A DNA stretch of 44,845 nt from Candidatus Taylorbacteria bacterium RIFCSPHIGHO2_12_FULL_45_16 (lineage in GTDB: Bacteria > Patescibacteriota > Minisyncoccia > Phycocordibacterales > PALSA-1337), in NCBI GenBank assembly GCA_001821055.1, contig MHRT01000005.1, forward strand, positions 109,533-154,377, in the 5' to 3' direction. The translations under genes were made by a program, and so were the position numbers. The notes beneath the pieces are model-generated. The model saw nothing but the letters and a program-made list of their open reading frames with translations. It was not told where the DNA came from and searched no databases. Shown in pieces: positions 10,791-44,845 of this stretch (position 1 is the stretch's first letter; every line of letters begins with the position of its first letter).

Positions 10791-13700
10791 ATGAAGAAGA
10801 ATACTGACAAGCGAGGTTTATCCTCGCTCAAACCTTACGACCATAAAACCATTGAGAAAAAGTGGCAGAAATATTGGGAGTCCCGAGGTGGAACCTCGGT
10901 GTCGGCAAAGAAATTTTACGGCTTGATCGAGTTTCCATACCCATCCGGTGACGGTCTGCATGTTGGCCACATCCGCAGCAATACGGCCATGGATGTCATC
11001 GCCCGCAAACGCCGCGCGCAGGGTTACAACGTGCTTTACCCTATAGGTTGGGATGCTTTTGGTCTACCAACGGAAAATTATGCCATCAAGAATGGTGTTC
11101 AGCCGGCTGTAGTGACAAAGAAAAATACAGATATTTTCCGCCGTCAACTAAAGGCGCTTGGCTTTTCATTTGATTGGTCACGCGAAATAAATACAACCGA
11201 TCCGGCATACTACAAATGGACGCAGTGGATTTTTCTGCAATTTCTGAAGAAAGGCCTGGCCTACAAGAAGAAGATGACCATCAATTGGTGTCCAAAGGAT
11301 TTGATCGGCCTAGCGAACGAAGAAGGGATTAACGGTGCCTGTGAGCGTTGCGGTACGCCGGTGGAAAAGCGCGAAAAAGAGCAGTGGATGTTGGCGATAA
11401 CGAAGTATGCGGACAAGCTATTGTCAGGATTAAACGCAAAGGTGGCTGAAGATGGCACGTTGATTGAGGATGACTTCGGTACCCCGTTGTTTACGCAAAT
11501 GACAGAAACTTCGGCGATTCGTCTGGAGCTTCCATATGTAGAACGCGATGCGATTATGGCGATTGTAAAGCATTGGTCAGAGGATAAATACATCGGCCTC
11601 AAATGGAAAAAGGTGGCGTGGAAAACCCTGATCACTGGAGGACCAGAAGGTAATCAGACTTTAGAAGAGGCGGCAATAGCAGAAATTGCTGAAGAAACCG
11701 GTTACAAAAATCCGAAACTTATAAGGCATTTAGATCGAGTGGATTCAAAATTTTTCCACGTGCCAAAAAATATAAATAGATACGCCCATTTTGATGTGAT
11801 GTATTTCGAACTTCAAAATAGTGACCGGAATGAAATAACGTCCGAAGAACAAGGAAACCATGATGTGGAGTGGCTCTCAAAAGAAGAAATGACCAAGTTT
11901 TTGACGCCAGCTTCGCATCAATATGTTTGGAAGAAATTTCTCAACCCTGATTTGAATGTGAATTCGTACGGTAAACCCCTGCTCGATTGGAAAGAATCGA
12001 TAAAAGATTCACAGCGGAACTGGATAGGGAAGTCGGAGGGCGCGGAACTGACTTTCAAAATCAAGGCAGCCAATTTGGACAAGCAAATAAAAGTTTTTAC
12101 CACCAGGCCCGACACTTTGTTTGGTGTGACCTATGTTGTTTTGGCGCCGGAACATGCCCTGGTCAAGGAATTATTGCCAAATGTCGAAAATAAAGAAGAA
12201 GTCGAAGCGTACATAGGGAAAGTCAAAAAAGAGTCAGACATCGAGCGGACTGACGCCAAGAAAGAAAAAACCGGCGTGGAATTGAAGGGTGTAAAAGCGG
12301 TAAACCCGGCGAACAATGAAGAAGTTCCGGTCTGGATTGCCGACTATGTACTGGCTGATTATGGCACCGGAGCGGTTATGGCTGTGCCGGCGCACGATGA
12401 GCGTGACGGAGATTTTGCCAAAAAATGCGGATTGCCACAAAGAGAAGTCGTCGCGCCGATGATCAATGTGACTGAGGGTGACTTTGCCTTTCGGCCGGGA
12501 GTCAAGATAGTCGATAGGCAGTGCGTTCTGGCCATTGTGAAGCATTGGGAAAAAGACGAGTATCTGTGTCTGACTTCAAAGAGACATGGTTGGACGACTT
12601 TTGTCATTGGCGGCATCGATCAGGGTGAAGATGCCGTCGCGGCGGCCAAGCGGGAAATAACGGAGGAGACCGGCTTCACGGATTTTGCGTCATTTAGACC
12701 GCTGGGCGGGCATGTGTATGCCAAACATTTCGCGCCGCACAAGAATGAAAATCGTTCGGCCAGACTCAATGGTTTTTACGTTGAACTAAAAAGTGGAACA
12801 CAACAGCCGGTGGCCGAACACGAAGCGAACCATCAGGAGATTTCCTGGATTCCGCGCAAAGACATTGCCAATAGACTGCACCCCAAAATAACCGATTGGG
12901 CTTTTTGGCAGAGATTTGAGAGTGATAAGGCATATGTAGGCGAAGGAATTTTGGAAAATTCCGGCAAATTCGACGGCCAAGATTCCGAATCGGCCAAAAA
13001 AGAAATTACCGAAGCTGTCGGCGGCAAATGGGTTACAACCTTCAAACTTCGCGACTGGATCTTTTCCCGCCAGCGCTATTGGGGCGAACCGATACCAGTG
13101 GTGCACTGCCAAAAATGTGGCATCGTGCCGGTTCCAGAAAAGGATCTGCCCGTAAAGTTGCCAAAGGTCAAAAATTACAAGCCGACGGAGACCGGCGAAT
13201 CACCGCTGGCCGCTATTTCCAAGTGGGTGAATACCAAGTGTCCGCAGTGTGTCGCTGATAAAAAAAAGACTAAGTATTTTATTTTTGATTTTGACGGGGT
13301 TTTGGGAAATACATGGGATATCATGAATTCAGCAAAAGTCAGGATGGGCGACGCGGAGACAATAGACGAGGCGGCAAAAGATTCACTATCCCACTTTGAT
13401 AAAAAACCGATTGATGCGAGAAACCATTTTTTGACGCCTGAACAAAGGAAGGAAAGACAAGAGTGGATAACGACATTTGGTAAACATCTTTCGGAATCAA
13501 ATTTTGGCTTGTTTGACGAGTTTATCAAGGAATTAAAGAAAATAAAAAATGTAAAACTGGCAGTTGCATCTTCTGGTTCTGCGCAATATGTTTTGCCCGC
13601 ACTCAAAAAATCCGGTTTGAAATTCACGCATATACTGGCATATGAGGATCATCATTCCAAAGAAGAAAAAGTCGAGCGTATTTGCGAGGATTGGGGTATA

Positions 13701-31445: not shown

Positions 31446-32417
31446 ATGACACACGATCTTATTCTTCCTTCAAAGCCAAGAATCATCAATGAGCACGGTA
31501 CCAGCGGTACCTATGAGATTGACGGTCTTTACCCTGGTTACGGACACACATTGGGCAACTCGCTCCGTCGCATCATCCTCTCATCGCTTCCTGGTGCGGC
31601 CGTTACCAAGGTCAAAATCAAGAATGTCGAGCATGAATTTTCGGCAATAGACGGTATAAAGGAAGACGTCATCACTATTTTACTTGCATTAAAAAAACTC
31701 CGAGTTCGCATTAGCGGCGACGAGGCGGTCAATCTTACTATCAAAGTCAAGGGTGCAAAGGAAGTCACCGCCAAAGATATTGATGTTCCAGGACAGGTTG
31801 AGATTCTTAATCCGGAACTTCATATCGCTTCGCTGACCGAAAAATCATCGGAACTTGATGTGGAAATCATGGTGGAAAAAGGCCTTGGTTATGTTTCGAA
31901 GGAAATCATCCAAAAAGAACGCGTGGAAATTGGCGCCATCACCCTTGATGCCGCATTCACTCCTATTCGTAAAGCTAATTATGAAGTTGAGAATATGCGC
32001 GTCGGCGATCGCACGGATTTCAATCGTCTTCGTGTGACGATTGAAACCGATGGTACGATTTCTCCTCGTGAAGCGTTGGAAAAATCCATCGCCATAATGA
32101 TTCACCAACTCAAAGCCATTGTCGGTTTCACCGAGAAAGACACGGAAGTTGATATGGTTGAATCTGTCGATAAAAAAACGGAATCTCCTGAAGGATCGCT
32201 CAAGGACATTAATTCTGATCTGTTGAAGACTCGCGTCGACGCACTTGGTTTTTCTGTTCGCACTGCCAAAGCGCTTTCTAACAGCAATGTCCGTACACTG
32301 GGCGGCTTGGCACGCAAAAAAGAGTCGGATATTATGGACATTGACGGGCTAGGCGCCAAAGGTATGCAAGAGATCAAAAAATTATTGGCTCAGCACGGCA
32401 TAACGCTAAAGCAATAA
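31446..32417 (+). CDS. rpoA: RNA polymerase alpha subunit
   Basis: GYGHTLGNSLRRIILSSLPGAA, HEFS. Confidence 0.97.
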   Translation: MTHDLILPSKPRIINEHGTSGTYEIDGLYPGYGHTLGNSLRRIILSSLPGAAVTKVKIKNVEHEFSAIDGIKEDVITILLALKKLRVRISGDEAVNLTIKVKGAKEVTAKDIDVPGQVEILNPELHIASLTEKSSELDVEIMVEKGLGYVSKEIIQKERVEIGAITLDAAFTPIRKANYEVENMRVGDRTDFNRLRVTIETDGTISPREALEKSIAIMIHQLKAIVGFTEKDTEVDMVESVDKKTESPEGSLKDINSDLLKTRVDALGFSVRTAKALSNSNVRTLGGLARKKESDIMDIDGLGAKGMQEIKKLLAQHGITLKQ

Positions 32418-32429
32418 TCTGTTATTTTT

Positions 32430-32780
32430 ATGAGACATCATTCAAACAAGAGAAAATTCGGCAGAGAAAAGAATCAGAGAAACGCTTTGATGTCTTCGTT
32501 GGCGCGAAACTTGATTCGTGACAACCGGATAAAAACCACGACTATGAAAGCTAAAGAGCTCCGCCCGATGGTCGAGAAACTTATCACCAAAGCTAAGATT
32601 GCGACTATCGTCTCGCGCCGCCTGATTATCTCACGGATCCACGCTGTTGCCGAAACCAAAAAACTCATTGAAACAATTGCGCCAAGATATGTGAACCGCA
32701 AAGGTGGTTATACCCGTATCATCCGTCTGCCAAATCGCGATTTGGATGGCAGTCCGATGTCATTAATTGAATTTGTATAA
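32430..32780 (+). CDS. rplQ: 50S ribosomal protein L17
   Basis: MRH, KAKELR, GGYTRI. Confidence 0.97.
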   Translation: MRHHSNKRKFGREKNQRNALMSSLARNLIRDNRIKTTTMKAKELRPMVEKLITKAKIATIVSRRLIISRIHAVAETKKLIETIAPRYVNRKGGYTRIIRLPNRDLDGSPMSLIEFV

Positions 32781-32810
32781 AAATAACACCAGTTCACGAG
32801 TGTCACAATC

Positions 32811-33155
32811 ATGAAACACACCATCGACGCACAAGGTAAAAAGATAGGACGCATTGCTAGTCAAGCGGCGGTTATTCTTTTAGGAAAACATTCGCCCGCG
32901 TTTGCTAAAAATAAAGTGTCAATTGATACGGTCGAAATTGTCAACGCTTCAAAAGTTGATCTTACTTTAAAAAAGAAAATCAATGATATTTTTGTGACAT
33001 ACACTGGTTTTCGTGGCGGTTTGAAAAATGAATCTTTAGGAGAGCTGATCGCGCGCCGAGGCATGACGGAAGTATTCCGTCGAGCCGTCACCCGCATGTT
33101 GCCCAACAACCGTCTGCGCGATGAAAGGATTAAGAATCTGACCATAAAAGAATGA
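32811..33155 (+). CDS. rplM: 50S ribosomal protein L13 (short form)
   Basis: IDAQGKKIGRIAS, YTGFRGGL, RMLPNNRL. Confidence 0.95.
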   Translation: MKHTIDAQGKKIGRIASQAAVILLGKHSPAFAKNKVSIDTVEIVNASKVDLTLKKKINDIFVTYTGFRGGLKNESLGELIARRGMTEVFRRAVTRMLPNNRLRDERIKNLTIKE

Positions 33156-33167
33156 ATATAAAATAAG

Positions 33168-33578
33168 ATGACGACCAAACCAACAATTCACAAATACTTT
33201 GAAGCTGTCGGTCGCAGGAAAACTGCCATTGCTCGCGTGCGTCTTTTTCCTGCTACAAAAACTGGATTCGAGATCAACGGCAAGTCATTGGAGATATATT
33301 TTCCAGTCAAAGAAATGCAAATGAATGTTACCGATCCTTTCACCAATGGTAAGGCCGCAGAGAAATTCCATGTGACTGCTAAGCTCACAGGTGGAGGCAT
33401 TTCAGCTCAATCAGAAGCACTCCGTCACGGTATCTCCCGCGCTTTACTTGTTTATGATATAGAGCTCCGTGGCAAACTCAAAAAGCTTGGTTACTTGAAA
33501 CGTGACCCTCGTGCCAAAGAGCGCCGCAAGTTTGGTTTCAAAAAAGCCCGTAAGTCTCCACAGTGGAGTAAGAGATAA
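33168..33578 (+). CDS. rpsI: 30S ribosomal protein S9
   Basis: GRRKTAIARV, GGGISAQ, KKARKSPQWSKR. Confidence 0.97.
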   Translation: MTTKPTIHKYFEAVGRRKTAIARVRLFPATKTGFEINGKSLEIYFPVKEMQMNVTDPFTNGKAAEKFHVTAKLTGGGISAQSEALRHGISRALLVYDIELRGKLKKLGYLKRDPRAKERRKFGFKKARKSPQWSKR

Positions 33579-33596
33579 CTTACCGCCGCAGTGGTC
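33558..33596 (+). repeat. attL, overlapping the rpsI 3' end
   Basis: ccacagtggagtaagagataacttaccgccgcagtggtc; 38/39 identical to 44069-44107. Confidence 0.92.
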
Positions 33597-33627
33597 TAAA
33601 CGATAAACGAGCCTTCTTTATGAAAAG

Positions 33628-33660
33628 ATTAAGACGCCCAGAGATGGGCGTTTTAATTTT
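33628..33660 (+). terminator. intrinsic terminator after rpsI, inside the element
   Basis: attaagacgccca-gaga-tgggcgttttaat followed by T-rich tail. Confidence 0.75.
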
Positions 33661-33666
33661 ATCTAC

Positions 33667-33828
33667 ATGGATAAATACCCTAGGTTAAATTCAGTTGTTG
33701 TCCTCGAACATGGTCAAGATATCGTGCGTGTTTATAACGCTCTTGTAATGGCTGTCGAAGCCGGAGAGGGCAAGGAAAGAGATCACTACCAGTCTATTAT
33801 TGAGCGTCTATTTTTAGAATCTCCATGA
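33667..33828 (+). CDS. 53-aa hypothetical phage protein
   Basis: MDKYPRLN...LFLESP; ATGA overlap with the next ORF. Confidence 0.5.
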   Translation: MDKYPRLNSVVVLEHGQDIVRVYNALVMAVEAGEGKERDHYQSIIERLFLESP

Positions 33829-33968
33829 AAAACATATTCCACATTTTTGGAGGAAAGAGGAGGTCACGTCACATTAAAAGTAAGATGAAGTACTTTTCGG
33901 GTAGAGGGTATAAACCGCGTGCGGCTCTGCAATTACAAAAAATGTACCCGTCGGCTCGAATTAAATAA
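33825..33968 (+). CDS. 47-aa basic hypothetical protein
   Basis: MKNIFHIFGGKRRSRH...ARIK; translationally coupled to the previous ORF. Confidence 0.45.
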   Translation: MKNIFHIFGGKRRSRHIKSKMKYFSGRGYKPRAALQLQKMYPSARIK

Positions 33969-33977
33969 ATAATCACC

Positions 33978-34121
33978 ATGAGAATCATTAAAAACGATCA
34001 TCTTATAGAAATGGCTTGGTCAAAAATAGCAGAGGGATTGGCACGTAGAGATTTTCTTGTCGTACAGAAGAATTTTTACTGGCTACGTAGGTTACTTAAA
34101 GAGGCAGAAATTAAATTCTGA
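33978..34121 (+). CDS. 47-aa hypothetical protein
   Basis: MRIIKNDH...EIKF; TGATG overlap with the next ORF. Confidence 0.5.
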   Translation: MRIIKNDHLIEMAWSKIAEGLARRDFLVVQKNFYWLRRLLKEAEIKF

Positions 34122-34321
34122 TGATTACCCAATGGCATTGCGACATAGAAGCTTCTTCGTCTGACTGCTATGTAACGGCCAGCACTACGATCAGCTCAAC
34201 TTCAAGCCCGATCTATTCACAGGATGCAGGGAACATCAGTTTTGGTCTTGCGGTTCAGATTGTCCTCATGGGATTGATAGCTTGTGGTCTGGTCTTTAAT
34301 GTTTTCTTTAAGCGTAAATAA
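34121..34321 (+). CDS. small TM protein (minor coat-like)
   Basis: 66 aa; C-terminal TM followed by KRK. Confidence 0.6.
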   Translation: MITQWHCDIEASSSDCYVTASTTISSTSSPIYSQDAGNISFGLAVQIVLMGLIACGLVFNVFFKRK

Positions 34322-34322
34322 C

Positions 34323-34490
34323 ATGTTTGATCCAAATTACCAATTTGCTACTCCTCTACTCATGGCATTCAATGCGGTCTTTATTTTTCTCGCTACATGG
34401 ATTCCTGTATATGCGGCGATTTCTTTTTTTATCGGCCTGATAGTTAGATTTTTTCGCAAAGGTGGTTCACGTAATGTATTGCGAATATGA
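34323..34490 (+). CDS. small TM protein (coat-like)
   Basis: 55 aa, hydrophobic, basic C-tail. Confidence 0.6.
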   Translation: MFDPNYQFATPLLMAFNAVFIFLATWIPVYAAISFFIGLIVRFFRKGGSRNVLRI

Positions 34491-34588
34491 TTACACCCGA
34501 AATTTACTTTCTCTATATTTTTGCGATGTTGCTTTCGATAGTGATCTACACTTTTTTGCGACTTATTAAACGATTTCTAAACTGGTGA
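34487..34588 (+). CDS. 33-aa TM protein (pVII/pIX-like)
   Basis: MITPEIYFLYIFAMLLSIVIYTFLRLIKRFLNW; ATGA overlap. Confidence 0.55.
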   Translation: MITPEIYFLYIFAMLLSIVIYTFLRLIKRFLNW

Positions 34589-34646
34589 TCTCGGCAATGC
34601 CAATAAGCCCGAAGCCAAGTCGATTTATCAAAATAACATCATAAAC

Positions 34647-34856
34647 ATGACCTCTACAACCACAGCCATTTTTACCGCACTAGGCATTCCTTGGGCAACC
34701 ATGTATGCCTCGGTACAAACGGCAGTAGGCCAAGCAGGGCAAGTCCTTTTGGACATCTTTGTGACCTTGTGGCCGCTCTGGCTCGGTATAGGTGTTTTGC
34801 TTTTCGTGATCGGCATCCCTTGGGTGCTCTATCGACGCGCCACCCACGCAAGGTAA
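34647..34856 (+). CDS. candidate major coat protein (pVIII-like)
   Basis: 69 aa; amphipathic N-part, TM, basic tail YRRATHAR; directly before the pIII-like gene. Confidence 0.65.
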   Translation: MTSTTTAIFTALGIPWATMYASVQTAVGQAGQVLLDIFVTLWPLWLGIGVLLFVIGIPWVLYRRATHAR

Positions 34857-34915
34857 ACACAGAAAAGACCCCCTATTCGGAGGCCTTTCGTAATACACCA
34901 TAATTTTACCATCTT

Positions 34916-36364
34916 ATGAGAAATTCCTGCAAGTGGCTAGGCATTATAGGAGTAGTGGCTACTCTCGTATTTTTTGCCGACGTGCCACGCGCGAGTGCTG
35001 ATATTCAGCAATTGGAAAACAGCGTGTTGTATCAGAACGGTCAGACCATAGACCAGGCACTGGGTACAGGTCTTTCTGGGTCAATTGATAGTATCGGTGT
35101 ATATGCTGAATACTATAGCGGTTCAGGCATCTTTATTGTGGCGATTGCCTGTTACGACGATGCGGCCTACACCCTAATATGTGGAGGAGGTACGGATGGA
35201 ACTCATTTTCGTTCAGAAAATGTTGACGTAACTACACTCAACGGGTACATAAATATCGAATCGAATGGCGTTTATGTAGACACATTTACACCTACGAAAT
35301 ACTACCGATTAGCAGTACGTTCAGATGGTTTCTATTCAATTGGCGGAGCTTCTTCTGGCTCCCCATATGCCTTTGGTGATGTTTTGCCTGACTCTTTAAG
35401 TCCGAATACATCACCATCAATAACTGGAAAGGATCTGTATTTTTGGATAAATGCTGACTATTCAGCGATTCCTGATACCTCAACTCGCTTTATCTTTCTT
35501 TCTCCTGTCGCAAGTTCGACTGTGGCAACAAGCACTACAGTCGGAGCGCATGTGTATGTAAATGAATCTGACTGGGAAGATGGGACGTACTTGTCCCTCG
35601 CATATACCAATCAGACTGTGGCACATGTAGGTGGCTCGGCTCTCGATGCGTGGTACGCGGCATTTGGCACAGGTTCGACGGGAGGCGATACCGCGATCCA
35701 CTTACCACTGCTTGCCGGAGATAACGATGTAGCAACTTCGACAGTATTTCCGTTTATCGGCCGAACGATAGGAAATTACAAAATTATTAGACCATCTGCA
35801 TACGAAGGGTTGTGGTTGATAGGGCGTTTCTTTGGAGGACAGACGATCGTAGCTTCTTCTACTTCTTTCATTGTCGTCCAAAGAACAGGTGTGGATATTG
35901 CGGTGGAGGCGGGCGGGACAGCATTGATTGATGCTCTGATTACGGGTACCACTACTGCTCCGATCTTAAACTGTCACGTAACGAGCTTTTCACTCGAACT
36001 CTGCCTAATCTCGCTCATTGTACCGCCAGCTTCAGTTTTGAAGGCCGATTTTGAACGATTCCGCGATGCCTTCCTAACTAAATGGCCTCTAGGTTACGTT
36101 ACGCGAGTAATTTCCGTAATGGCGACCACAACCCCCGTAGCATTACCCACACTCGACTTTACAATGCCGTCCGTGATTGGGGGACAGCATGTAGAACTTG
36201 ATCCGTGGCCATATCTTTTCAGTGCTTCTTCGACTATCGGATCAGCAAGCTCTACGGAGGGGCAGACATTCCGTGAAATTACGGAGCCATATTGGTACAT
36301 GTTGTGGGCTGTAATCCTCGTACTCGCAATTACCAAGCATGTAATAGGGATGAGACACCACTAA
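34916..36364 (+). CDS. adsorption protein (pIII-like)
   Basis: Signal peptide, S/T/G-rich body, C-terminal TM anchor; inovirus gene order. Confidence 0.7.
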   Translation: MRNSCKWLGIIGVVATLVFFADVPRASADIQQLENSVLYQNGQTIDQALGTGLSGSIDSIGVYAEYYSGSGIFIVAIACYDDAAYTLICGGGTDGTHFRSENVDVTTLNGYINIESNGVYVDTFTPTKYYRLAVRSDGFYSIGGASSGSPYAFGDVLPDSLSPNTSPSITGKDLYFWINADYSAIPDTSTRFIFLSPVASSTVATSTTVGAHVYVNESDWEDGTYLSLAYTNQTVAHVGGSALDAWYAAFGTGSTGGDTAIHLPLLAGDNDVATSTVFPFIGRTIGNYKIIRPSAYEGLWLIGRFFGGQTIVASSTSFIVVQRTGVDIAVEAGGTALIDALITGTTTAPILNCHVTSFSLELCLISLIVPPASVLKADFERFRDAFLTKWPLGYVTRVISVMATTTPVALPTLDFTMPSVIGGQHVELDPWPYLFSASSTIGSASSTEGQTFREITEPYWYMLWAVILVLAITKHVIGMRHH

Positions 36365-36365
36365 A

Positions 36366-36635
36366 ATGATATTGCAATTGATTCTAACAATTCTGATCGG
36401 AGCAATAGAAATTTTATTTGGATGGCTTCCCGATGCGAGTACCTTACCGAGTGTTTTCGGGTATTCATTGGATACTGCTTTTGTTACAGCGATGGGATAC
36501 TGGCAGTCATTTTCTAGTGTTGTCTGGCCAGTGGTATTTCCATTTCAGTGCGCCCTGTTCTATATGGGCTTCTTATTAACAATCCAAGTCGTAAAGATTT
36601 TCTTAGGCCATAGAACGCCTAGCGCAACAACATAA
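36366..36635 (+). CDS. pVI-like membrane protein
   Basis: 89 aa, hydrophobic; lies between the pIII-like gene and Zot. Confidence 0.65.
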   Translation: MILQLILTILIGAIEILFGWLPDASTLPSVFGYSLDTAFVTAMGYWQSFSSVVWPVVFPFQCALFYMGFLLTIQVVKIFLGHRTPSATT

Positions 36636-37549
36636 TGCCTACATTCATACCAAACAAAGCGGGAACCGCTGTTAAGGAAATTGACTTACTTGATCTTTTC
36701 GAGGCCGAGGAGGGCACAATCAATCAGTATTATGGCCGAGTTGGACAAGGAAAGACGTATGCGGCGACAAAAGATGTGCTTGATGATCTGGCAAATGGGC
36801 AAGTGATCTATGCGAACTGGCATCTGAACTTTGAAGGACATGATGACAGATATTCGTTGAAGTACGCTTCGCGAAATTTCTTTTTCTTTAGGAAAAGGTA
36901 CTACCGATTCCCAAAAGAAAACTTCCACTTCATAGAAATAGACGATCAATTTATGGATAAATTCGAGAAATTGACGGACTGCAAAGTGTATCTCGACGAA
37001 GGGCACGTAATCTTTGATTCGTATGAAATGGCCAAAATGTCTTTACGGAAACGTAAAAGCATTTTACATACGCGCCATTTCAACAGAACGATCAATATTA
37101 TTTCACAACGTCCAACAGCGGTGCATGTTTCCGCTCGCGGAAATGTAAATATATTCTATCGTTGCACAAAGATTTGGACGTGGCCGGTCATGCTCTTTCG
37201 GCGACAGGAATTCCAAGATATGACAGGGGAGACTGTTGATGAGACAGCCGATCCCATCTCTACACGCTTCTACATGGGAAGAAAGCGTGTCTTTGAGGCA
37301 TACAACTCAAAGTATCTTCGTGGAGGAATTCCGAGATCGCAGAAAGTGTATGTCGAGGCTTGGGATTTGAGCTTCACGGAGCGATTTTGGCTTTTGTGCT
37401 CTGTGATTCAACGTGTGCTTCCGCTTAAGCGGAAGCACACGCCCGCGCGCGAAAGCGCGTCGCCGAGGGGGTTAAATGGGGCTAACGGCGTTAAAGAATC
37501 ATCCGGCGTGCCCACTACGGATGATCGGACGGGGGAACTCCCGTTTTAA
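36635..37549 (+). CDS. Zot/pI-like assembly ATPase
   Basis: Walker A GRVGQGKT, IYAN, Walker B VYLDEGH, HTRH, IISQ. Confidence 0.88.
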   Translation: MPTFIPNKAGTAVKEIDLLDLFEAEEGTINQYYGRVGQGKTYAATKDVLDDLANGQVIYANWHLNFEGHDDRYSLKYASRNFFFFRKRYYRFPKENFHFIEIDDQFMDKFEKLTDCKVYLDEGHVIFDSYEMAKMSLRKRKSILHTRHFNRTINIISQRPTAVHVSARGNVNIFYRCTKIWTWPVMLFRRQEFQDMTGETVDETADPISTRFYMGRKRVFEAYNSKYLRGGIPRSQKVYVEAWDLSFTERFWLLCSVIQRVLPLKRKHTPARESASPRGLNGANGVKESSGVPTTDDRTGELPF

Positions 37550-37610
37550 GTTGTCTCACGCTTCGTGTTGGCTTGTCAGCTGTCTAACGCTGTCGAGGGA
37601 TAATACACGT

Positions 37611-37653
37611 CGAGCGGCCTACTCTGCTGTCATCAGCGGAGTAGGGGCGCTCG
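37611..37653. other. GC-rich hairpin after Zot (candidate packaging signal or origin)
   Basis: cgagcg-g-cctactctgctg-tcat-cagcggagtagg-gg-cgctcg; no U tract. Confidence 0.45.
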
Positions 37654-37731
37654 TGAAAACAAGAGGGATATTATATACGGAACAGCGATTGTCACAATAC
37701 AATTAAATAACAATGTGCTAGATTTATACAC

Positions 37732-37992
37732 ATGAACCCAACTGAAATGAAATACGCATTGCTATGTTTGGCGACTTTAGGACTTTCAAGTTACACTTTT
37801 TATCTCTCTAATATTATTCTTGGAATACCACTGACAATCATCGGGATACTCTTTGGCATCAGGAGTACCAGTGCAAACAAACCTAAATGGAAGCAGGGTA
37901 TTTGGGTAGCCATCGGAGCTGTAGTCTTGGGATATACTGTTGCCGCACTTTTACTCGGATCAATTACTGGTTACTGTATGAACTGTGGATAA
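37732..37992 (+). CDS. small 3-TM protein
   Basis: 86 aa, hydrophobic; TGcTAGATT 7 nt before the ATG. Confidence 0.65.
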   Translation: MNPTEMKYALLCLATLGLSSYTFYLSNIILGIPLTIIGILFGIRSTSANKPKWKQGIWVAIGAVVLGYTVAALLLGSITGYCMNCG

Positions 37993-38065
37993 CCAAAATT
38001 AGAAGGGGTATTTTTATGCTATACTATTGTTCGTACTCTTAATAATTGAGTGGCCAATTATATAT

Positions 38066-38332
38066 ATGAAAAAAAATATTTATATTGCTATAGGTTCGTA
38101 TGTTCTTGCTTTGTTAGTTATGCTTATAGGAATTCCTGTAAGTGCATCGCCCGATACAAATAATTTAACGATCGCCATAGTCACTGCTATTTTTTTGGTA
38201 ATAGGAATTATATTCAGTCTTAAAAGCAACAAAGCAAAAGAATCATCTTGGATCGGAAGTCTCCTCGGTATTATAGGTATTCTTTGGCTGATATTCACTT
38301 TCATTGTCCTCTATTTGTCATCGATGCAATAA
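38066..38332 (+). CDS. small 3-TM protein, paralog A
   Basis: YVLALL...SNKAKESSWIG. Confidence 0.7.
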   Translation: MKKNIYIAIGSYVLALLVMLIGIPVSASPDTNNLTIAIVTAIFLVIGIIFSLKSNKAKESSWIGSLLGIIGILWLIFTFIVLYLSSMQ

Positions 38333-38601
38333 TGCAAAAGTATAAAAATACTTATATTTCCGTTGCATTTTACGTGCTGGCGCTTTTGTTTTATTTTATA
38401 TTAAACTCACCGGCGACTGCACCTTATTTCATCTGCGCAGTTATAGGTATCTTCTTTGCTCATATGAGTAACAGGAAGAAGGAATCATCTTGGGGAGGAA
38501 ATCTTTTACTGGTAGTTGGAATCTTACTGGTTTTGTTTCCTTTCTTAATAGTGCCCCTCTCATTCATGCTGTCAGGAACTTTGTACAATATTAGTCATTA
38601 G
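38332..38601 (+). CDS. small 3-TM protein, paralog B
   Basis: YVLALL...SNRKKESSWGG; TAATG overlap. Confidence 0.7.
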   Translation: MQKYKNTYISVAFYVLALLFYFILNSPATAPYFICAVIGIFFAHMSNRKKESSWGGNLLLVVGILLVLFPFLIVPLSFMLSGTLYNISH

Positions 38602-38626
38602 AAAGTGGAGAGTGGTGACTACAAAT

Positions 38627-38655
38627 AAAAAAGGGCCTGCCCTGAAGCAAGCCCT
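38627..38655 (-). terminator. intrinsic terminator of the 907-aa gene
   Basis: Minus strand agggcttgc-loop-gcaggccct followed by a U tract. Confidence 0.65.
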
Positions 38656-38675
38656 GTGACTAAGAGAACTACCGA

Positions 38676-41399
38676 TTAGTACGGCGAAACCCCACGATAG
38701 AATTTCATCGGAGCGTTCGTCGAACTTTGATCGTAGAAACGAACCAAGCCATTAGTGTTGGCGAGGACTGCGATGTCTGTCCAATTGAGAAGGTTAGTCG
38801 AGGCTTGGATGTGATAATCAAACCCTGCCTCTCCTGTCAACTGCTGTACCATCGCTCCGTTCGTCGTGCTTCCTGTAAATGACAACGAGAACGGCTGACT
38901 TACGCCGATCTGATTAAGTGCGATGTTCGTCACAGTCACGACTGACTGAATGTTTGTGAACGGATCGAGACGGAAGCCCAAGATGTGGCTACTGTTCGCA
39001 ACAGCATTCGGAAACCTAAACGTATAGTGGTTTGTGTTCACGATTCGCTCATCAACTGTTCCGATGATTTGGTCATCCCATAGCACCGACAATACTCCTT
39101 GCGCTCCATTGGTACTCGTAAATTGAGTATTGAAGGAGACAACATTGATTGGATTGGTGCTGGAAACGACAGTTGCAATCCATGCCGGTGACCCACTGAA
39201 CAGTTTGAGAGATTCGATCCATTTCTGAATCGTTCCCGTGTCACTCTGTATGATTGGCGATTGAGTAAAGTCAATCACAGTATTCACGTACGACGGCGGC
39301 GTCACTTGTATATCTGGCGTGCACGTCGGATCAGCAGTGCCGAGAAGTTGAGCTGGATCATTTCCTGGCGTATAACTTGGCACGCCTGAACTCCAACCGC
39401 CACCTTCTTTACTTAAAGGAAAACCAAATCCTTGGTAATCCGTAGTTACGTTACCTGTAATCGTGTTTGAGTAGAACTCGTATGGCCAGCTATGTGAGGT
39501 GATAGTCCTAACGCAAGGTTCCATTAAACCAGTAGCAGATGACCTAAACTTCGCACCAACGATCTTGTGCGGATCGAGCGGTGTAACGTCCAAGTTGTAT
39601 GCATGGTCAAGGGGACTTTCAGTGAACGGCCCAGTTAGAACGCTTCCGAATTGTGTCAGTGAATCACGTGAGAAGTACTGATCTGCCCAATCCGCTCCAC
39701 TACCGTATCTTCCTACCCCTTCAAATTCTTTACCTACATAGGGATCAAGAAACGTGCAATGGACAGTTGTACTCGGTGATAAGGCTTTGATCCTCTCGCT
39801 TGCCGCTTGAATCAGACCAGCTCCAGCACTATGTGATATCAGATGAACATGTGTCCATCCTTGCGCAGCAATGCAATCTCCCAACATTTTACCCTCTTGT
39901 TTCGCGTTGTTTAACGCATGCGTAGGATAAAATGTCCACGCCTTATCGATCCATTTGTAGGTATTGACTTGCCATGTGGTCAAACTATTTGCCACGAGAT
40001 AACTATTTATAGCATTCGACATCCCATCAAGCCATGATACATCAGGTTGTGGAAATGTCGGTGTTACGAATAGTTGCCACCCGTGCGTTGCCAATATCAA
40101 GTTACTCTTTCCCGATCCTTTGGACACACAATTTGCATACGTAGGTTGAGACGGCTGTGCCTCAATAGCATCTCTCCAGCCCGCAGATAGCGGATCAAGC
40201 AGAAATGCATGCGTCTGTCCCGACGGGTTCAATCCGTAGCCGACGATCTGACCCTTGTCATTGATAGCGGTTGCAGACTGAAGTGTCCACGGAGTGCCGT
40301 GCTGTATAGTCACATCGTTCAAGTCCTTCATTGAGCCGTTCGAGAAAAGAAAAGCCCGATTGCCAGACGAACCGACCACGTGAGCATTCACATTGATTCC
40401 GTAGGCATCTGATGATCCACCACTAAGAACGCCGAGATCTTGCATCGTTCCATTTTGGTAGTCATAGAACATTGCGTGATGCGCACCTCCGCTGGTGGTT
40501 GCGTAACCAACAACTTCTGCGTACATATTGATTGCATAGGCCGCGCTTTCATTGCCTCCCAATGTACCGATGTCCTGCATTACACTGTCGGCATAGAGGA
40601 AGGCGTGAACATGCCCATTTGTCGTCGAACTACCTGCAATATCGCCGTAGTCGTTGATGCCATAGGCGATACTTAGATGTGAACCAGTATTGCCAGGGAA
40701 AGTCCCGATATCCTGCATTGAGCCTCCAGAATAGAGGTATGCATGATAGTAGGCATTTCCACTGATGAGAGACCAGCCAACGATAGAATCGTTATTATTG
40801 ATCCCAAATGCCTGACTGTCCGATCCACCCAATGTGCCCAGATCGCTCATGGAACCACCTGCGTACAAGAATGCGTGAGCGCTTGAGCTACTGTATGCCG
40901 CCGCACCTACGACCTTTCCCGCAGAGTTGACCTCGTGTGCATTGCTGTCAGGGCCTCCAAGAGTACCCAGATTTTGCATTGAGCCGTTCGAATACAGGAA
41001 GGCATAAGCGTTAGCTCTGCCAACTACTTTGCCATCGTTATTGATCCCATTAGCGAAACTATCAGTGCCTCCTAGGGCACCGAGATCAATGACATTGTAA
41101 TCGTATTCAGGAGCAGGATCGTTCGGACTTGGCCCATCCAGTGCCATTATGATTGGTCGTACTGGCCGCGCAGGTTTTACTGGCCCGACGAAAGGCAGGG
41201 GATTATCTCCCCATTCTTTCAGCCAGTCCAGATACGCTGGCGGATAGATTTCCAAGGGCATCTTACTTCCCATGATTTTTTCGAGTGTTTCCGTGCCAGT
41301 CGGCTGATTTGTTTCTTCGGTTTGAGCCGAGACCTTCACGATCGTTGTTATCGCCATGATGAGAATCATGGTCGCCAGTAGGAGGACATTTCTTTTCAT
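38676..41399 (-). CDS. secreted protein: HAF repeats, alpha/beta-hydrolase-like domain and C-terminal STNL..W/FYR tail
   Basis: Signal peptide; seven DLGTLGG..S.A..IN..G.VVG..HAFLY repeats; THGW and ISHSAG. Confidence 0.85.
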   Translation of the reverse strand: MKRNVLLLATMILIMAITTIVKVSAQTEETNQPTGTETLEKIMGSKMPLEIYPPAYLDWLKEWGDNPLPFVGPVKPARPVRPIIMALDGPSPNDPAPEYDYNVIDLGALGGTDSFANGINNDGKVVGRANAYAFLYSNGSMQNLGTLGGPDSNAHEVNSAGKVVGAAAYSSSSAHAFLYAGGSMSDLGTLGGSDSQAFGINNNDSIVGWSLISGNAYYHAYLYSGGSMQDIGTFPGNTGSHLSIAYGINDYGDIAGSSTTNGHVHAFLYADSVMQDIGTLGGNESAAYAINMYAEVVGYATTSGGAHHAMFYDYQNGTMQDLGVLSGGSSDAYGINVNAHVVGSSGNRAFLFSNGSMKDLNDVTIQHGTPWTLQSATAINDKGQIVGYGLNPSGQTHAFLLDPLSAGWRDAIEAQPSQPTYANCVSKGSGKSNLILATHGWQLFVTPTFPQPDVSWLDGMSNAINSYLVANSLTTWQVNTYKWIDKAWTFYPTHALNNAKQEGKMLGDCIAAQGWTHVHLISHSAGAGLIQAASERIKALSPSTTVHCTFLDPYVGKEFEGVGRYGSGADWADQYFSRDSLTQFGSVLTGPFTESPLDHAYNLDVTPLDPHKIVGAKFRSSATGLMEPCVRTITSHSWPYEFYSNTITGNVTTDYQGFGFPLSKEGGGWSSGVPSYTPGNDPAQLLGTADPTCTPDIQVTPPSYVNTVIDFTQSPIIQSDTGTIQKWIESLKLFSGSPAWIATVVSSTNPINVVSFNTQFTSTNGAQGVLSVLWDDQIIGTVDERIVNTNHYTFRFPNAVANSSHILGFRLDPFTNIQSVVTVTNIALNQIGVSQPFSLSFTGSTTNGAMVQQLTGEAGFDYHIQASTNLLNWTDIAVLANTNGLVRFYDQSSTNAPMKFYRGVSPY

Positions 41400-41543
41400 A
41401 ATACTAATCCCGTTTCTGATTGTTTATTCAGTTGTCAAAGGCAACACACAACAGGTGTGAAGCCGAACTAATTGGTAGTCATGTATACCAACAGAAGGTT
41501 GATCTGTCAACCCCCCGCATATAGACACAACCTCCTGCGGGAT

Positions 41544-41692
41544 GCAAAAAGCCCACCGCGGAGTGAAGGCTCGAAGCCTTCCATGCCGGTTTCCCGACAT
41601 GGCCAGTGACGACAGTCCCCACGATGGGTTCTCTGATCGCCACTGGTCTTTTTGCCATGCCATTTTACTGGTTTAGGCTCCTATTCGATTGT
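41544..41692 (-). ncRNA. candidate structured RNA
   Basis: Promoter TTGCTA-17-TATGCT (41727-41699); nested stems, GAAA loop; G-U pairs favour the minus strand. Confidence 0.55.
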
Positions 41693-41783
41693 GAGAACAG
41701 CATACAATATTATTCACTCATTAGCAATTAAGCATCTTGAAATACGGATATAAATATGCTAGGGTTTCAGTAATTAAAAAATT

Positions 41784-42854
41784 ATGGAAGCTACAGAGCT
41801 AAAATCCATCCAAGAAGAGGCAGTCCGCCAAGGAGCTGAAATTAAGGCTGTTCTTGATTCAGTAAAAGGCTACACATCAGAGTTAGACACAATAAAGGAG
41901 GAGATAAGTTCAAAACGTCGTGCGGTTGCCCAGATCAGCACCAATGCGGAAACGAGAAAGACTGAAATTGAGGCTTCTCAATCGGTGATTGTTTCTTTGG
42001 AGACTAAAGCAAAAGAATTAGTCCAGAAAATTGAAACTGAAAATACAAAACTTGCGGAATATATTAGTACTTTTGAAAATACGCGAACAAAACTAGATGG
42101 CGGGGATGATGGCCTTGAAGCTGTATTCACTTGGGCACAACAGCAGAAAGAGGAGATTGGGAAACTCCTTGGACAATCACGCTTAGATCAAGCGGCGGTG
42201 ACAGAAATGAAGACGACTTCCGCAAAAGATACCGAGGGTATCGCAGGTCACAAAAAAGAAGTCGAGGGTTATCGTAAAGAAATCGAAAAGGTGTACGGAT
42301 TCATCAACGGACAGGGATTGGCGCATTCATTTAGTGACCGGCAGAAAAAATTACATCTTCCACTAATTCTGTGGAGTATAATGTTGTTCAGCGCGACATT
42401 CTTGGTCACCTGGGCTTTGTACGAAGTATTCAAAGAACTACCAATCGATATTGTCTCTGGCAAGAGAATATTTGACCCCTCCTCTCTTTTCTACAGGCTC
42501 TCTTTTGTTTCCCCAATTTTGCTTATCTTCTTCGTAGCATTGAGACAATATTCCCGTGAGCGTCGTTTGCTTGAAAGCTATGCGTTCAAAGCCGCCACAG
42601 CAAAGGCGTTAGAGAGCTACACGGAGATATTGGCACGCAGGTTTCCTGAAGAAAAATTTAGAAACCGCATTCTTGCATTCGTCCTTCATGCAATGGTGGG
42701 GATATATAGACATCCGAATAATGAACTGACGAAGGTCGAGGATGAAAAGGAGTGGGCGGAGAGTTTTGGTGAGATGGTTGATAAGGTCAGCAAACCTGTA
42801 GTTGAAAACGCCAAAAATGCTGTTTCCTCCGTTATTCCTGGGCTTAATAAGTAA
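41784..42854 (+). CDS. coiled-coil protein with two C-terminal TM helices
   Basis: ~190-aa heptad-rich region, two hydrophobic helices, YAFKAATAKALESY. Confidence 0.7.
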   Translation: MEATELKSIQEEAVRQGAEIKAVLDSVKGYTSELDTIKEEISSKRRAVAQISTNAETRKTEIEASQSVIVSLETKAKELVQKIETENTKLAEYISTFENTRTKLDGGDDGLEAVFTWAQQQKEEIGKLLGQSRLDQAAVTEMKTTSAKDTEGIAGHKKEVEGYRKEIEKVYGFINGQGLAHSFSDRQKKLHLPLILWSIMLFSATFLVTWALYEVFKELPIDIVSGKRIFDPSSLFYRLSFVSPILLIFFVALRQYSRERRLLESYAFKAATAKALESYTEILARRFPEEKFRNRILAFVLHAMVGIYRHPNNELTKVEDEKEWAESFGEMVDKVSKPVVENAKNAVSSVIPGLNK

Positions 42855-42878
42855 GCCTTCTGCTCAAAGGAGAAATCC

Positions 42879-43064
42879 TTGACAATAGGTTAAACTCGTG
42901 TAAGGTTAAAAGTATTACAAGTTAATAACCCAGTCGCTCCCAAGAGGAGTACGCCCGCGAGGGCTAGACGCTAACGACTAGAGCTTGTACAGGTATTCCA
43001 GCACAGTATTTGGTGCGGTATACTTGTCTATGAAGCCCGTCTGATTAGCGTCAGGCGGGTTTCA
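42879..43064 (+). promoter_or_regulatory. integrase promoter and structured 5' leader
   Basis: TTGACA at 42879; multibranch stems and a 14-bp hairpin ending 4 nt before the ATG. Confidence 0.6.
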
Positions 43065-43068
43065 ATTT

Positions 43069-43950
43069 ATGAGTATGAACCCAAACATTGTTTTGCGGGA
43101 CTACTTTGAGGAATATCTGACATTCAGAGCGCAAGAGGGAAATGTATCAAAGACGCTAGTGGAGCATAGGAGATTTTTAGAAGGACCATTAGAAACAGCA
43201 GTGGGTCACAAGAAGGTAGAAGATTTGCGGATTATTGACAGGGCGGCACTGATTGAAGCGGGCAAGCCTTATGGGATTTATGGATCTCAAAGAGCTGTAG
43301 TTACGTTCAGGCAGTTGTGTCGCTTTCTTAATCAGCGCGGTACTAAACTGCCATTTGATTGGCGAGACATCGAGACACCAAAAGTCCCTAGTAAGATGGT
43401 CGATTATCTGACGAGCGATGAGATTGAGAAAATACGTAATGCGTTCAATCCCAATAGTATGCCTGGATTACGCACTCGTAGCTTGATCGAGTTTTTGCTC
43501 GATACAGGTATGAGGATAGGGGAAGCGTGCAGTGTAAATAGAGACGATGTGAACTTTGACACCCATGAGATACGCATTAAGAATTGCAAAACGCATGAGG
43601 ACAACGTGGTTTACTTCACAGATCGAAGTGCGGAATGGATCAAGATGTATTTAGGCGCACGGCGCGACAAACATCCTGCATTATTCCTTTCCGGCCGAGA
43701 TCGTATGCTTCCTTTGACTTCACGAAACTACATCAGAGCGAAGACGAAAAATCTCGGTATCAAGAAAAAGATCGGCCACCATGTTTTTAGAAAAACATGC
43801 GGTACATATCTCTTACAAAACCAAGTTGACATCAAAAGCGTGCAAACATTACTAAGGCACAAAAGCGAACGCACCACGCTTAGGTATTATATTGGTATTG
43901 ATAAGGAGAAATGCAAAGTGATGCACCAAGCAGTGATGGCGGGCATATAG
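43069..43950 (+). CDS. tyrosine recombinase/integrase
   Basis: TGMRIGE (R), HVFRK (HxxR), LLRHKS (H), TTLRYY (Y); adjacent to attR. Confidence 0.93.
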   Translation: MSMNPNIVLRDYFEEYLTFRAQEGNVSKTLVEHRRFLEGPLETAVGHKKVEDLRIIDRAALIEAGKPYGIYGSQRAVVTFRQLCRFLNQRGTKLPFDWRDIETPKVPSKMVDYLTSDEIEKIRNAFNPNSMPGLRTRSLIEFLLDTGMRIGEACSVNRDDVNFDTHEIRIKNCKTHEDNVVYFTDRSAEWIKMYLGARRDKHPALFLSGRDRMLPLTSRNYIRAKTKNLGIKKKIGHHVFRKTCGTYLLQNQVDIKSVQTLLRHKSERTTLRYYIGIDKEKCKVMHQAVMAGI

Positions 43951-44068
43951 CAGAGAATATGTCCACAGGCTATCCACTTTGCGTTATGTACTCCGTCCCT
44001 AAATGGGGTATACTTAATTTTGTAATCTCTGTGTGATCTAGCATTTTCATAAAACAGCTCGTAGGATG

Positions 44069-44107
44069 CCACAGTGGAGTAAGAGATAACTTACCGCCAC
44101 AGTGGTC
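44069..44107 (+). repeat. attR
   Basis: ccacagtggagtaagagataacttaccgccacagtggtc. Confidence 0.92.
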
Positions 44108-44228
44108 AAGAGATAAGGGTTTGACGAATTGAAGCCCGATTGGATGGCGTTCACAGAAGAAGGGTGGAAACATCTCTTTTTTTGTGTTAGCATTTTTTTA
44201 AACACAAACCAGCAACCGTTTGATAATT

Positions 44229-44633
44229 ATGTTAACTGAACTAAGCAATGAACCGTTGATTATTTGGGCAATCTATGGGGGATGTGCTTTGGCCTTAATC
44301 TTCATTGTGAGACACATCTGTATTGTCTCCAACAGACCTATGAGAAGAAGCGAGTTGGTCCGTCAGGTCAAGATGATCTTTGACCCGGCGGGTCGTGATG
44401 ACGCGTCTCAGAGATATGAACACTGCGAGCATATCTGCTCGCACTATGGCATTTCTTTATTCGAAGTGGCTTCGCATACGGGATTTGTCGGAGACATGCA
44501 GGACCTTTTGCAGGAAGCTAAAAGATCCGAAAAACGATCAAGTTATCGGAAGATTCTGCTTGAAGATGAAGTACGAGAGCACCCGCAGAGATTTCCGTCT
44601 GGTAGCTCCTTAGATACGAATGCGAAGATTTGA
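44229..44633 (+). CDS. hypothetical membrane-anchored protein
   Basis: ORF with an N-terminal TM; start codon uncertain. Confidence 0.55.
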   Translation: MLTELSNEPLIIWAIYGGCALALIFIVRHICIVSNRPMRRSELVRQVKMIFDPAGRDDASQRYEHCEHICSHYGISLFEVASHTGFVGDMQDLLQEAKRSEKRSSYRKILLEDEVREHPQRFPSGSSLDTNAKI

Positions 44634-44662
44634 AATGATATAATCCATACCCTGATCGTCGC

Positions 44663-44685
44663 ACGGCGCGCTTGCGCCGTTTTTT
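44663..44685 (+). terminator. intrinsic terminator
   Basis: acggcgc-gctt-gcgccgt-ttttt. Confidence 0.7.
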
Positions 44686-44724
44686 ATTGCATCTTTTTTA
44701 TTTTTTAGTTATGCTGTGGACACT

Positions 44725-44845
44725 ATGTTTAAAAAGAAGCCAACTGACGATGATATTATCCCTGAATTGGAAGCCACAGGACTTGATACTTTGGATGATT
44801 CGGTCGTGGCAGAAGAAGCTATGACTGAAACCATCAAGAAACTTC
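44725..44845 (+). CDS. grpE: probable GrpE N-terminus (truncated by window)
   Basis: Acidic MFKKKPTDDD...ETIKKL leading into a coiled coil; position after rplM-rpsI fits; only 40 aa visible. Confidence 0.45.
   Translation, partial: MFKKKPTDDDIIPELEATGLDTLDDSVVAEEAMTETIKKL

Follow-up and report, generated by a model that had tools for sequence, protein, structure and literature searches.

The window analysed here is a 44,845-nucleotide stretch (109,533–154,377) of contig MHRT01000005.1 (C5), from a Candidatus Taylorbacteria genome. In it, a 10.5-kb region next to the gene for ribosomal protein S9 (rpsI) is an intact, integrated, horizontally mobile element of Parcubacteria. The left part of this element (33.6–37.5 kb) is an inovirus assembly module, encoding small membrane proteins, coat-like, pIII-like and pVI-like proteins and a Zot/pI ATPase. 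The reading I favour, with a probability of about one half, is that the element joins this cassette to an integrase-bearing backbone, that it has lost its gene for a replication initiator (Rep), and that its single-stranded DNA (ssDNA) would be made by an initiator acting in trans. Two close relatives, referred to as L001 (in genome G802, of the same genus) and L070 (on an 89-kb metagenome contig), show the same architecture, the same rpsI end and no Rep.

The limits of the element are given by a direct repeat. Over positions 32000–44845, the best pair returned by a repeat search was 33540–33596 / 44051–44107 (57 nt, 88% identical), with a core of 39 nt (33558–33596 / 44069–44107) that holds a single G/A mismatch and a spacing of 10,511 bp; no second repeat longer than 32 nt or comparably exact was found over the same positions. 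This bears out the first-pass annotation of the window, made from its letters alone, which had placed about 10.5 kb between 39-bp repeats with one mismatch. The left copy covers the last 21 nt of rpsI, and 7 nt after the end of the gene attL carries a second, synonymous P-Q-W-S-K-R-stop copy. Two copies of the rpsI end are also present at attR, while L070 has one at attL and three at attR; these copy numbers would fit a crossover located in the CCNCAGTGG core, and integration on more than one occasion. Integration in rpsI, as first proposed, is correct with regard to the 3′ end of the gene as the site, but the gene is not interrupted, attL restoring a synonymous PQWSKR-stop.

The same site is empty in other genomes. 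I found rpsI in 31/31 relatives, with grpE at most 1.5 kb downstream in 23/29 relatives' loci, mostly followed by dnaK, and 3.2 kb downstream in one further genome; element genes surround rpsI in none of the 29 loci. At the empty sites the rpsI end is present once, as CCNCAGTGG...TAA/TAG; such sites include those of three species closer to the window host (rpsI 84–92% identical). Downstream of attR in the window are grpE (44716–45309) and then dnaK, and the 137-amino-acid (aa) open reading frame (ORF) at 44220–44633 is a host gene, with homologues at the same place in two empty-site relatives. The region thus has the attributes of a site-specific integrative element, namely an integrase with its catalytic residues, flanking repeats, a restored target gene and an empty site in relatives. 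Its host, already suspected to have a genome of the candidate phyla radiation (CPR) type, is a member of the Parcubacteria (754 kb, 98% complete), in the same genus as “Parcubacteria bacterium C7867-002”. Calling a ribosomal-protein gene unusual as an attB, as was done initially, was an overstatement, since the 3′ end of rpsI is reported as a target of tyrosine-integrase integrative and conjugative elements (ICEs) in Streptococcus (PMC4701971). For an inovirus at rpsI, a non-exhaustive literature search found no description.

The gene sizes and gene order first read in the left part, including the upstream ORFs of 47–53 aa (53, 47 and 47 aa), are as had been stated, and so is the tyrosine integrase, whose R, K, HxxR, H and Y are all readable in the sequence. 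The coat, pIII and pVI assignments were made on size, topology, gene order and homologues in circular relatives, with topologies (for the 66-, 68-, 69-, 482-, 89- and 304-aa proteins) taken from a hydrophobicity scan; the homologues occur in the same order in the circular 4.5–5.4-kb relatives L073, L074 and L100, whose contigs in other respects resemble ordinary inovirus genomes. Conservation in L001 and L070 differs between the proteins. The candidate major coat protein is 75–78% identical to its two counterparts (96% between L001 and L070, with a ratio of nonsynonymous to synonymous divergence, dN/dS, of 0.04), and the 66-aa protein 54–57%, its W-x-C motif recurring in relatives. The pIII-like protein, which also has homologues in the circular relatives, is fast-evolving (34–35%). 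The 47-aa basic protein has weak homologues in circle L073 (E 0.017) and in L001 (6e-4). No protein of the element is better conserved than the integrase (88–91%), whose highest NCBIfam scores, against XerA/XerD, stay under the cut-offs. The non-coding segment upstream of its gene (42903–43063) shows 86–87% nucleotide identity both between window and L001 and between L001 and L070, which exceeds that of the flanking genes.

The 304-aa ATPase matches the Pfam Zot family (PF05707) at 32.7 bits, against a cut-off of 20.3, and has no other Pfam match. Since in PHROGs a terminase family (2e-6) follows closely on a Zot-like one (1e-6), the fold was tested. A profile of six relatives returned 2r2a as its sole PDB match at E<0.1. 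An AlphaFold model built on a 23-sequence alignment (pLDDT 79, pTM 0.71) has the same entry, the N-terminal domain of Neisseria Zot, as its top Foldseek match (E 6e-7, TM-score 0.65 by target), with generic RecA chains ranking behind it. The first-pass annotation had named an ATPase grouping outside Zot/pI as grounds for dropping the inovirus reading; both sequence (PF05707) and fold (2r2a) place it inside that group. The comparison with inovirus profiles that was proposed at the same time succeeded for Zot, but the coat proteins gave no curated match.

I found no Rep or other replication initiator in the element with Pfam or PHROGs, and tblastn with the Reps of four relatives gave a best E of 3.7 inside it. 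The initial impression, that neither an HUH or Rep_trans initiator nor an ssDNA-binding protein (SSB) is present, stands after Pfam, PHROGs and tblastn searches. Relatives of the Zot protein are rare among sampled genomes (2/401 of the class, 2/401 of the order and 5/93 of the genus), and Zot-alignment scans supplied 30 metagenome-contig loci and 6 viral-contig loci (with a single Zot query, the viral-contig scan returned no relatives). An HUH Rep lies directly downstream of Zot in 15/36 of these loci by tblastn, several loci being mutual duplicates, and a post-Zot HUH Rep is also present in genus members G836, G829 and G841. The Rep+ loci include L066, L067, L068, L074, L075, L076, L077, L082 and L061, all statements on the last of which rest on the unpublished genome G654. 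Their Rep belongs to PF23343, REP_ORF2-G2P (2e-22, 8e-20, 9e-17). These relatives are more distant (Zot 39–59% identical). Their integrated copies carry Rep and then a different tyrosine integrase, ∼26% identical to that of the window, and L074 is a complete 5,384-bp circle with Rep, an SSB-like gene, coat genes, pIII, pVI and Zot. The first-pass annotation had asked whether homologous elements also lack Rep; the closest ones, L001 and L070, do, but distant relatives carry the PF23343 Rep, and the same genus accounts for three of these. After Zot, the window has a stretch rich in hairpins and then three ORFs for small membrane proteins, the 86-aa product being 70% identical in L070. In an unrooted Zot tree, Rep+ rows fall on both sides of the window clade; Rep state must then have changed twice or more, which makes loss of Rep in this lineage the simpler reading.

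Comparison of L001 and L070 illustrates how this lineage has travelled. Host genes of the L070 contig (rpoA, rplQ and rpsI) are 58–68% identical to those of the window. Between L001 and L070, the host proteins are 69% (rpoA, synonymous divergence dS saturated), 63% (rplQ, dS saturated) and 61.5% (rpsI, dS 1.5) identical, whereas the element proteins are far more alike, at 92% for Zot, 96% for the coat protein, 93% for pVI and 91% for the integrase (dN/dS 0.03–0.06, dS about 1–1.9). The element is therefore of far more recent date than the divergence of its hosts. These comparisons point firmly to horizontal spread between hosts, with the assembly genes and the integrase under strong purifying selection since then. 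All ORFs are intact in the three copies. Directly after attR in L070 (16586–17011) is the decayed start of a second copy, consisting of a small helical ORF and a truncated W-x-C protein, which indicates tandem integration at rpsI. Two circular relatives, L073 (4,579 bp) and L100 (4,500 bp), possess the Zot, pIII, pVI and coat genes; both Rep and integrase are absent from them, and none of their unassigned ORFs exceeds 194 aa. Judged on these sequences, the absence of Rep is real and lineage-wide.

The palindrome inside the Zot ORF has 12-bp arms around CTTAAG and lies within the last 45 codons, at the precise point where, in relatives with a shorter Zot, the protein stops. It is kept, with different arms and an invariant CGCTTAAGCG centre, in L001, L070, L073 and L078. 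Among its pairs, 9/13 have changed on both sides and none on a single side, and pairing is kept in 96.9% of cells, values reached by 0/500 shuffles, with slid controls at 25–42%. All changes are full Watson–Crick swaps, and both strands therefore keep the symmetry, which would suit a hairpin or cruciform in the DNA as well as a symmetric protein site. The palindrome occurs once in the genome, and its motif is absent from all Rep+ loci examined. A strict tie between palindrome and Rep loss was considered and rejected, since Rep+ L077 and L082 also have hairpins there, with other GC arms of 9–10 bp. Across the loci, an arm of at least 8 bp is found near the Zot end in 12/31, and a GCTTAAGC-centred one in 5/31. 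The surrounding 300 nt (37400–37700), folded as ssDNA, reach −72.8 kcal/mol (z −7.35, 0/100 shuffles as good), and the 76-aa ORF at 37476–37706 is probably not a gene. Other perfect palindromes, with arms of 14–20 bp and in some cases GAGGTCGGACCTC or CCGAGGTGGAACCTCGG cores, are scattered on contigs C1, C5, C7 and C10 of the genome and may form a family of palindromic repeats.

Candidate helpers are common in the genus, where 24/93 genomes encode a PF23343 Rep, up to 7 per genome, and 5/93 a Zot. The window genome has one such Rep, at C10:39715–40500, 40% identical to the inovirus Rep of L061. It is located in an island (∼31.6–42.6 kb of C10) that also holds two serine recombinases, DNA methylases/restriction-modification genes and a NUDIX gene. 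With an inovirus-type Rep and no assembly genes, this island is the complement of the window element.

In the reading I favour, the ancestors would be inoviruses of 5–9 kb in which pI is immediately followed by the gene for an HUH rolling-circle initiator (PF23343). The Rep gene would have been lost, and membrane-protein genes would now stand in its place. The assembly cassette (33.6–37.5 kb) would be joined to a backbone made of the Xer-like integrase, a secreted HAF/lipase-like protein gene led by a LOOT RNA, and a variable cargo slot. The integrase would recombine in the CCNCAGTGG core and so insert the element where rpsI ends; because the element brings synonymous last codons, S9 is unchanged. 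Passively maintained in the chromosome, the element would need an initiator in trans to make ssDNA for packaging, possibly from a resident rolling-circle element or a co-infecting Rep+ relative, and I infer that the target of this initiator would be the conserved hairpins where the pI gene ends. The element would then be a “replication-dependent” counterpart of assembly-dependent inovirus satellites. Of the first proposal, a helper-dependent or atypically replicating element, the general idea survives as the best remaining reading, but a helper for this element is only inferred.

Several observations weigh against this reading. No particle, circle or ssDNA of the element was seen in assembled contigs of DNA runs. 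These contigs, from 4 of the 18 DNA runs, contain only the integrated form, with flat depth and no att-site joints, and since contigs drop rare variants this check is uninformative on rare circles. Neither Pfam and PHROGs nor tblastn with the SSB-like proteins of L061, L074, L076 and L100, themselves without a family name, revealed an SSB. The coat-, pIII- and pVI-like proteins have no curated family match in Pfam, PHROGs or NCBIfam searches. The Zot protein has no transmembrane (TM) segment, in that no 19-residue window reaches 1.6 on the Kyte–Doolittle scale, unlike canonical pI, for which one or two TM domains are among the criteria given by Roux et al. 2019 (PMC6813254); among relatives, those Zots that are shorter stop before any TM segment. 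As for the helper, a shared origin of the element and the C10 Rep island was rejected, because blastn-short against C10:30–45 kb gave chance matches of 13–17 nt only, and no PF23343 match is present in G802 (89% complete), the genome in which L001 resides.

A further point against it comes from G829, of the same genus. One of its contigs carries an integrase 83% identical to that of the window, attR, grpE and dnaK, with LOOT, a secreted protein and an NYN protein upstream. On another contig, rpsI is followed after 17 nt by a 140-nt segment that is 92% identical to the one following Zot in L001 and L070, then by unrelated genes and the contig end; the loci concerned are L120 (880–1050) and L118 (6400–11639). 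The assembled contigs have no Zot or assembly genes at this rpsI site; cassette and backbone are therefore separable, and the backbone may live without the cassette. G829 is a mosaic, its integrase being an outgroup and its post-Zot segment not, and as a result a cassette that was lost and one that was never present look the same here.

It is unlikely, in my judgement, that the cassette is an exapted filament module, serving as a surface filament or export channel to the advantage of element or host (for instance in episymbiont adhesion), packaging no DNA and spreading as double-stranded DNA through transformation and the integrase. In its favour are the lack of Rep and SSB, a pIII-like protein that evolves fast as an adhesin does, the co-inheritance of the secreted HAF/lipase-like protein and the separability seen in G829. 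Purifying selection on the assembly genes would fit any function. Against it, cassette and integrase have moved jointly between distant hosts, and the circular 4.5-kb relatives, which carry the same cassette with no integrase or Rep, exist as free replicons or virion genomes; the palindrome conserved in the DNA and the very basic small protein suggest retained DNA handling. I consider it quite improbable that the element replicates autonomously without an HUH or Rep_trans protein, through its Xer-like recombinase acting on the palindrome, whose layout is that of a tyrosine-recombinase core site, or through a small unannotated protein. The palindrome is kept by compensatory change in five loci, the integrase is the most constrained protein across the three copies, at 88–91%, and circles L073 and L100 imply some Rep-free persistence in the clade. 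These circles, however, also lack an integrase, all Rep-less genomes share only the assembly proteins and the tiny basic protein, and L077 and L082 have hairpins at the same place together with a Rep. No tyrosine recombinase is known to initiate rolling-circle replication, which I also count against this route.

That the element is a defective prophage remnant, with Rep deleted and the rest decaying, is very improbable. Relatives' Rep position is now occupied by other genes, and the contigs of the four runs show no excision (a weak test), but intact ORFs in three copies, dN/dS of 0.03–0.06 and elements far more alike than their hosts all contradict decay. The first-pass annotation had held that a Rep in close relatives would reveal a defective prophage; distant relatives do carry one, but a Rep-less element present in three hosts, having moved between them and under purifying selection, is at odds with that conclusion. 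Returning to the preferred reading, it can tentatively be widened to a whole clade of filamentous phages without an initiator of their own, living as an integrase-bearing chromosomal passenger or as a 4.5-kb circle, and either borrowing Reps of host plasmids and islands or replicating Rep-independently via the palindrome; I regard this wider version as possible, though doubtful.

Table 1. Features of the element and its target site (positions in the window, unless a locus is named).
Feature	Position	Strand	Remarks
rpsI (ribosomal protein S9), target gene, intact	33168..33578	+	PF00380 1.6e-38; end ...KSPQWSKR-stop
attL, left 39-bp repeat copy	33558..33596	.	rpsI end + second, synonymous copy; CCGCAGTGGTCTAAACGATAA continues to 33606
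Hairpin + T run just inside attL, likely replacement terminator for rpsI	33622..33663	+	L001, L070: equivalent hairpins, different stems
53-aa acidic ORF, window-specific	33667..33828	+	no homologue in L001 or L070
47-aa very basic protein, candidate DNA-binding protein	33825..33968	+	14 K+R, no D/E
47-aa helical ORF	33978..34121	+	look-alikes in L070, L073 by eye, unscored
66-aa protein, candidate minor coat protein	34121..34321	+	C-terminal TM helix, N-terminal W-x-C motif
68-aa TM protein	34284..34490	+	single C-terminal TM helix
69-aa candidate major coat protein	34647..34856	+	one TM helix, basic C-terminal tail
482-aa pIII-like protein	34916..36364	+	signal peptide + C-terminal membrane anchor
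89-aa pVI-like multi-TM protein	36366..36635	+	hydrophobicity scan, relatives
Zot/pI-type assembly ATPase, 304 aa	36635..37549	+	Walker A GQGKT; DE in Walker B; no TM segment
Hairpin cluster, “intergenic region” look-alike	37400..37700	.	includes terminator-like hairpin at Zot stop
Perfect 30-bp palindrome within 3′ end of Zot ORF	37412..37441	.	centre CGCTTAAGCG
Small multi-TM proteins, 86, 101 and 117 aa (last two overlap)	37732..38601	+	at relatives' Rep position; hydrophobicity scan
907-aa secreted protein	38676..41399	-	signal peptide, 7 HAF repeats (TIGR02913 1.8e-64)
LOOT RNA (RF03000)	41565..41679	-	76.5 bits vs gathering score 46.4, full length 1-121
356-aa coiled-coil protein, two TM segments, variable cargo slot	41784..42854	+	absent from L001, L070
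Conserved non-coding segment upstream of integrase gene	42903..43063	.	86-87% nucleotide identity
Xer-like tyrosine integrase	43069..43950	+	PF00589 8e-34, profile 2-168 of 172
attR, right repeat copy	44069..44107	.	element-borne rpsI-codon look-alike (K-T-A-R-R-M) before it
~130-aa protein of relatives	L072 4762-5169, L094 5513-5902, L095 5066-5473, L091 5454-5891, L102 4886-5233		

The accessory half of the element carries the LOOT RNA, 165 nt upstream of the gene for the 907-aa protein and on the same strand; LOOT is also present in L001, L070 and G829, and in 29/151 genomes sampled from the class. At loci L034–L053 it usually lies 60–200 nt upstream of a small membrane or secreted protein gene, often beside a serine recombinase, and ten LOOT-neighbour genes that were tested included three large serine recombinases and one ParB-methylase. 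LOOT marks recombinase-bearing elements in this class. Under the name “LOOT motif” no literature was found. In the 907-aa protein, a predicted structural resemblance of residues ∼420–690 to a lipase-like alpha/beta-hydrolase is a lead only, a PDB sequence search gave 0 matches, and the C-terminal domain is of unrecognised fold. Its C-terminal half is conserved in L001 and L070, where the N-terminal half is an FGE-sulfatase-type domain.

Among the cargo proteins, PADLOC returned coiled-coil noise for the 356-aa protein only. The slot before the integrase holds a ThsB-like TIR and 8xMP pair in L001 (14954–15884) and nothing in L070. The same pair, at 67–71% aa identity, is found between Rep and integrase in the Rep+ locus L082 (7375–8305), and from this similarity these phages appear to exchange a defence-type cassette. 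Two side observations concern other relatives. Relatives without an HUH Rep encode a conserved protein of ∼130 aa (Table 1), a candidate alternative replication or processing gene; its identification by eye as a nuclease was rejected, as it has no Pfam match and the window has no homologue. The Rep+ inovirus-like prophage L068 contains a tRNA-Val gene (12755–12828, minus strand) between its coat-like and pIII-like genes.

Inoviruses of CPR bacteria, reported by Roux et al. 2019 (PMC6813254), and rpsI as a target were already known. In contrast, no description of a Rep-less, integrase-bearing, horizontally spreading inovirus lineage was found in the literature, in a search that was not exhaustive. 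Inoviruses are in practice defined by pI and a rolling-circle initiator, and screens for pI plus Rep can miss or misjudge such elements. A Rep-less lineage with selected assembly genes, still moving between hosts, raises the question of how ssDNA viruses can outsource replication. Parcubacteria, a group with few known prophages, thereby gain a further documented kind of phage. The element also provides an experimentally usable integrase/att pair that targets the universal gene rpsI, in organisms without genetic tools, and links the orphan LOOT RNA to a phage-borne gene for a predicted secreted hydrolase.

With regard to known systems, replication initiators are one criterion for genuine pI families in Roux et al. 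2019 (PMC6813254), and the present lineage is without one. The streptococcal rpsI ICEs described in PMC4701971 also use a site-specific tyrosine integrase at the 3′ end of rpsI and leave the gene unharmed; they are conjugative elements of Firmicutes, unlike the one described here, and the likeness is one of target site and integrase class. Other LOOT-bearing elements of CPR bacteria resemble the window element in having a recombinase at one end and LOOT just upstream of a membrane or secreted cargo gene, but those noted so far have serine recombinases and tRNA targets, whereas this element has a tyrosine integrase, the rpsI site and an inovirus cassette.

In gene order the element parallels the Ff group (M13/fd) and other classical Inoviridae, which share the succession of small coat genes, pVIII-like, pIII-like, pVI-like and pI genes and a hairpin-rich region, and where pIII likewise has a signal peptide and a C-terminal anchor. 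Compared with Ff, the element lacks gII/gX (Rep), gV (SSB) and a secretin, its pI is without a TM segment, and it has in addition an integrase and ∼5 kb of accessory genes. The Vibrio satellites RS1 and TLC-Knphi1 keep replication genes and borrow assembly from their helpers, CTXphi and fs2. As may be the case here, labour is divided between filamentous elements and integration occurs in tandem arrays. The element would be their inverse, keeping assembly and lacking replication, with a presumed dependence on a helper. If this is true, it would be the first “replication-parasitic” inovirus, a mirror image of the known satellites and among the smallest self-assembling viruses.

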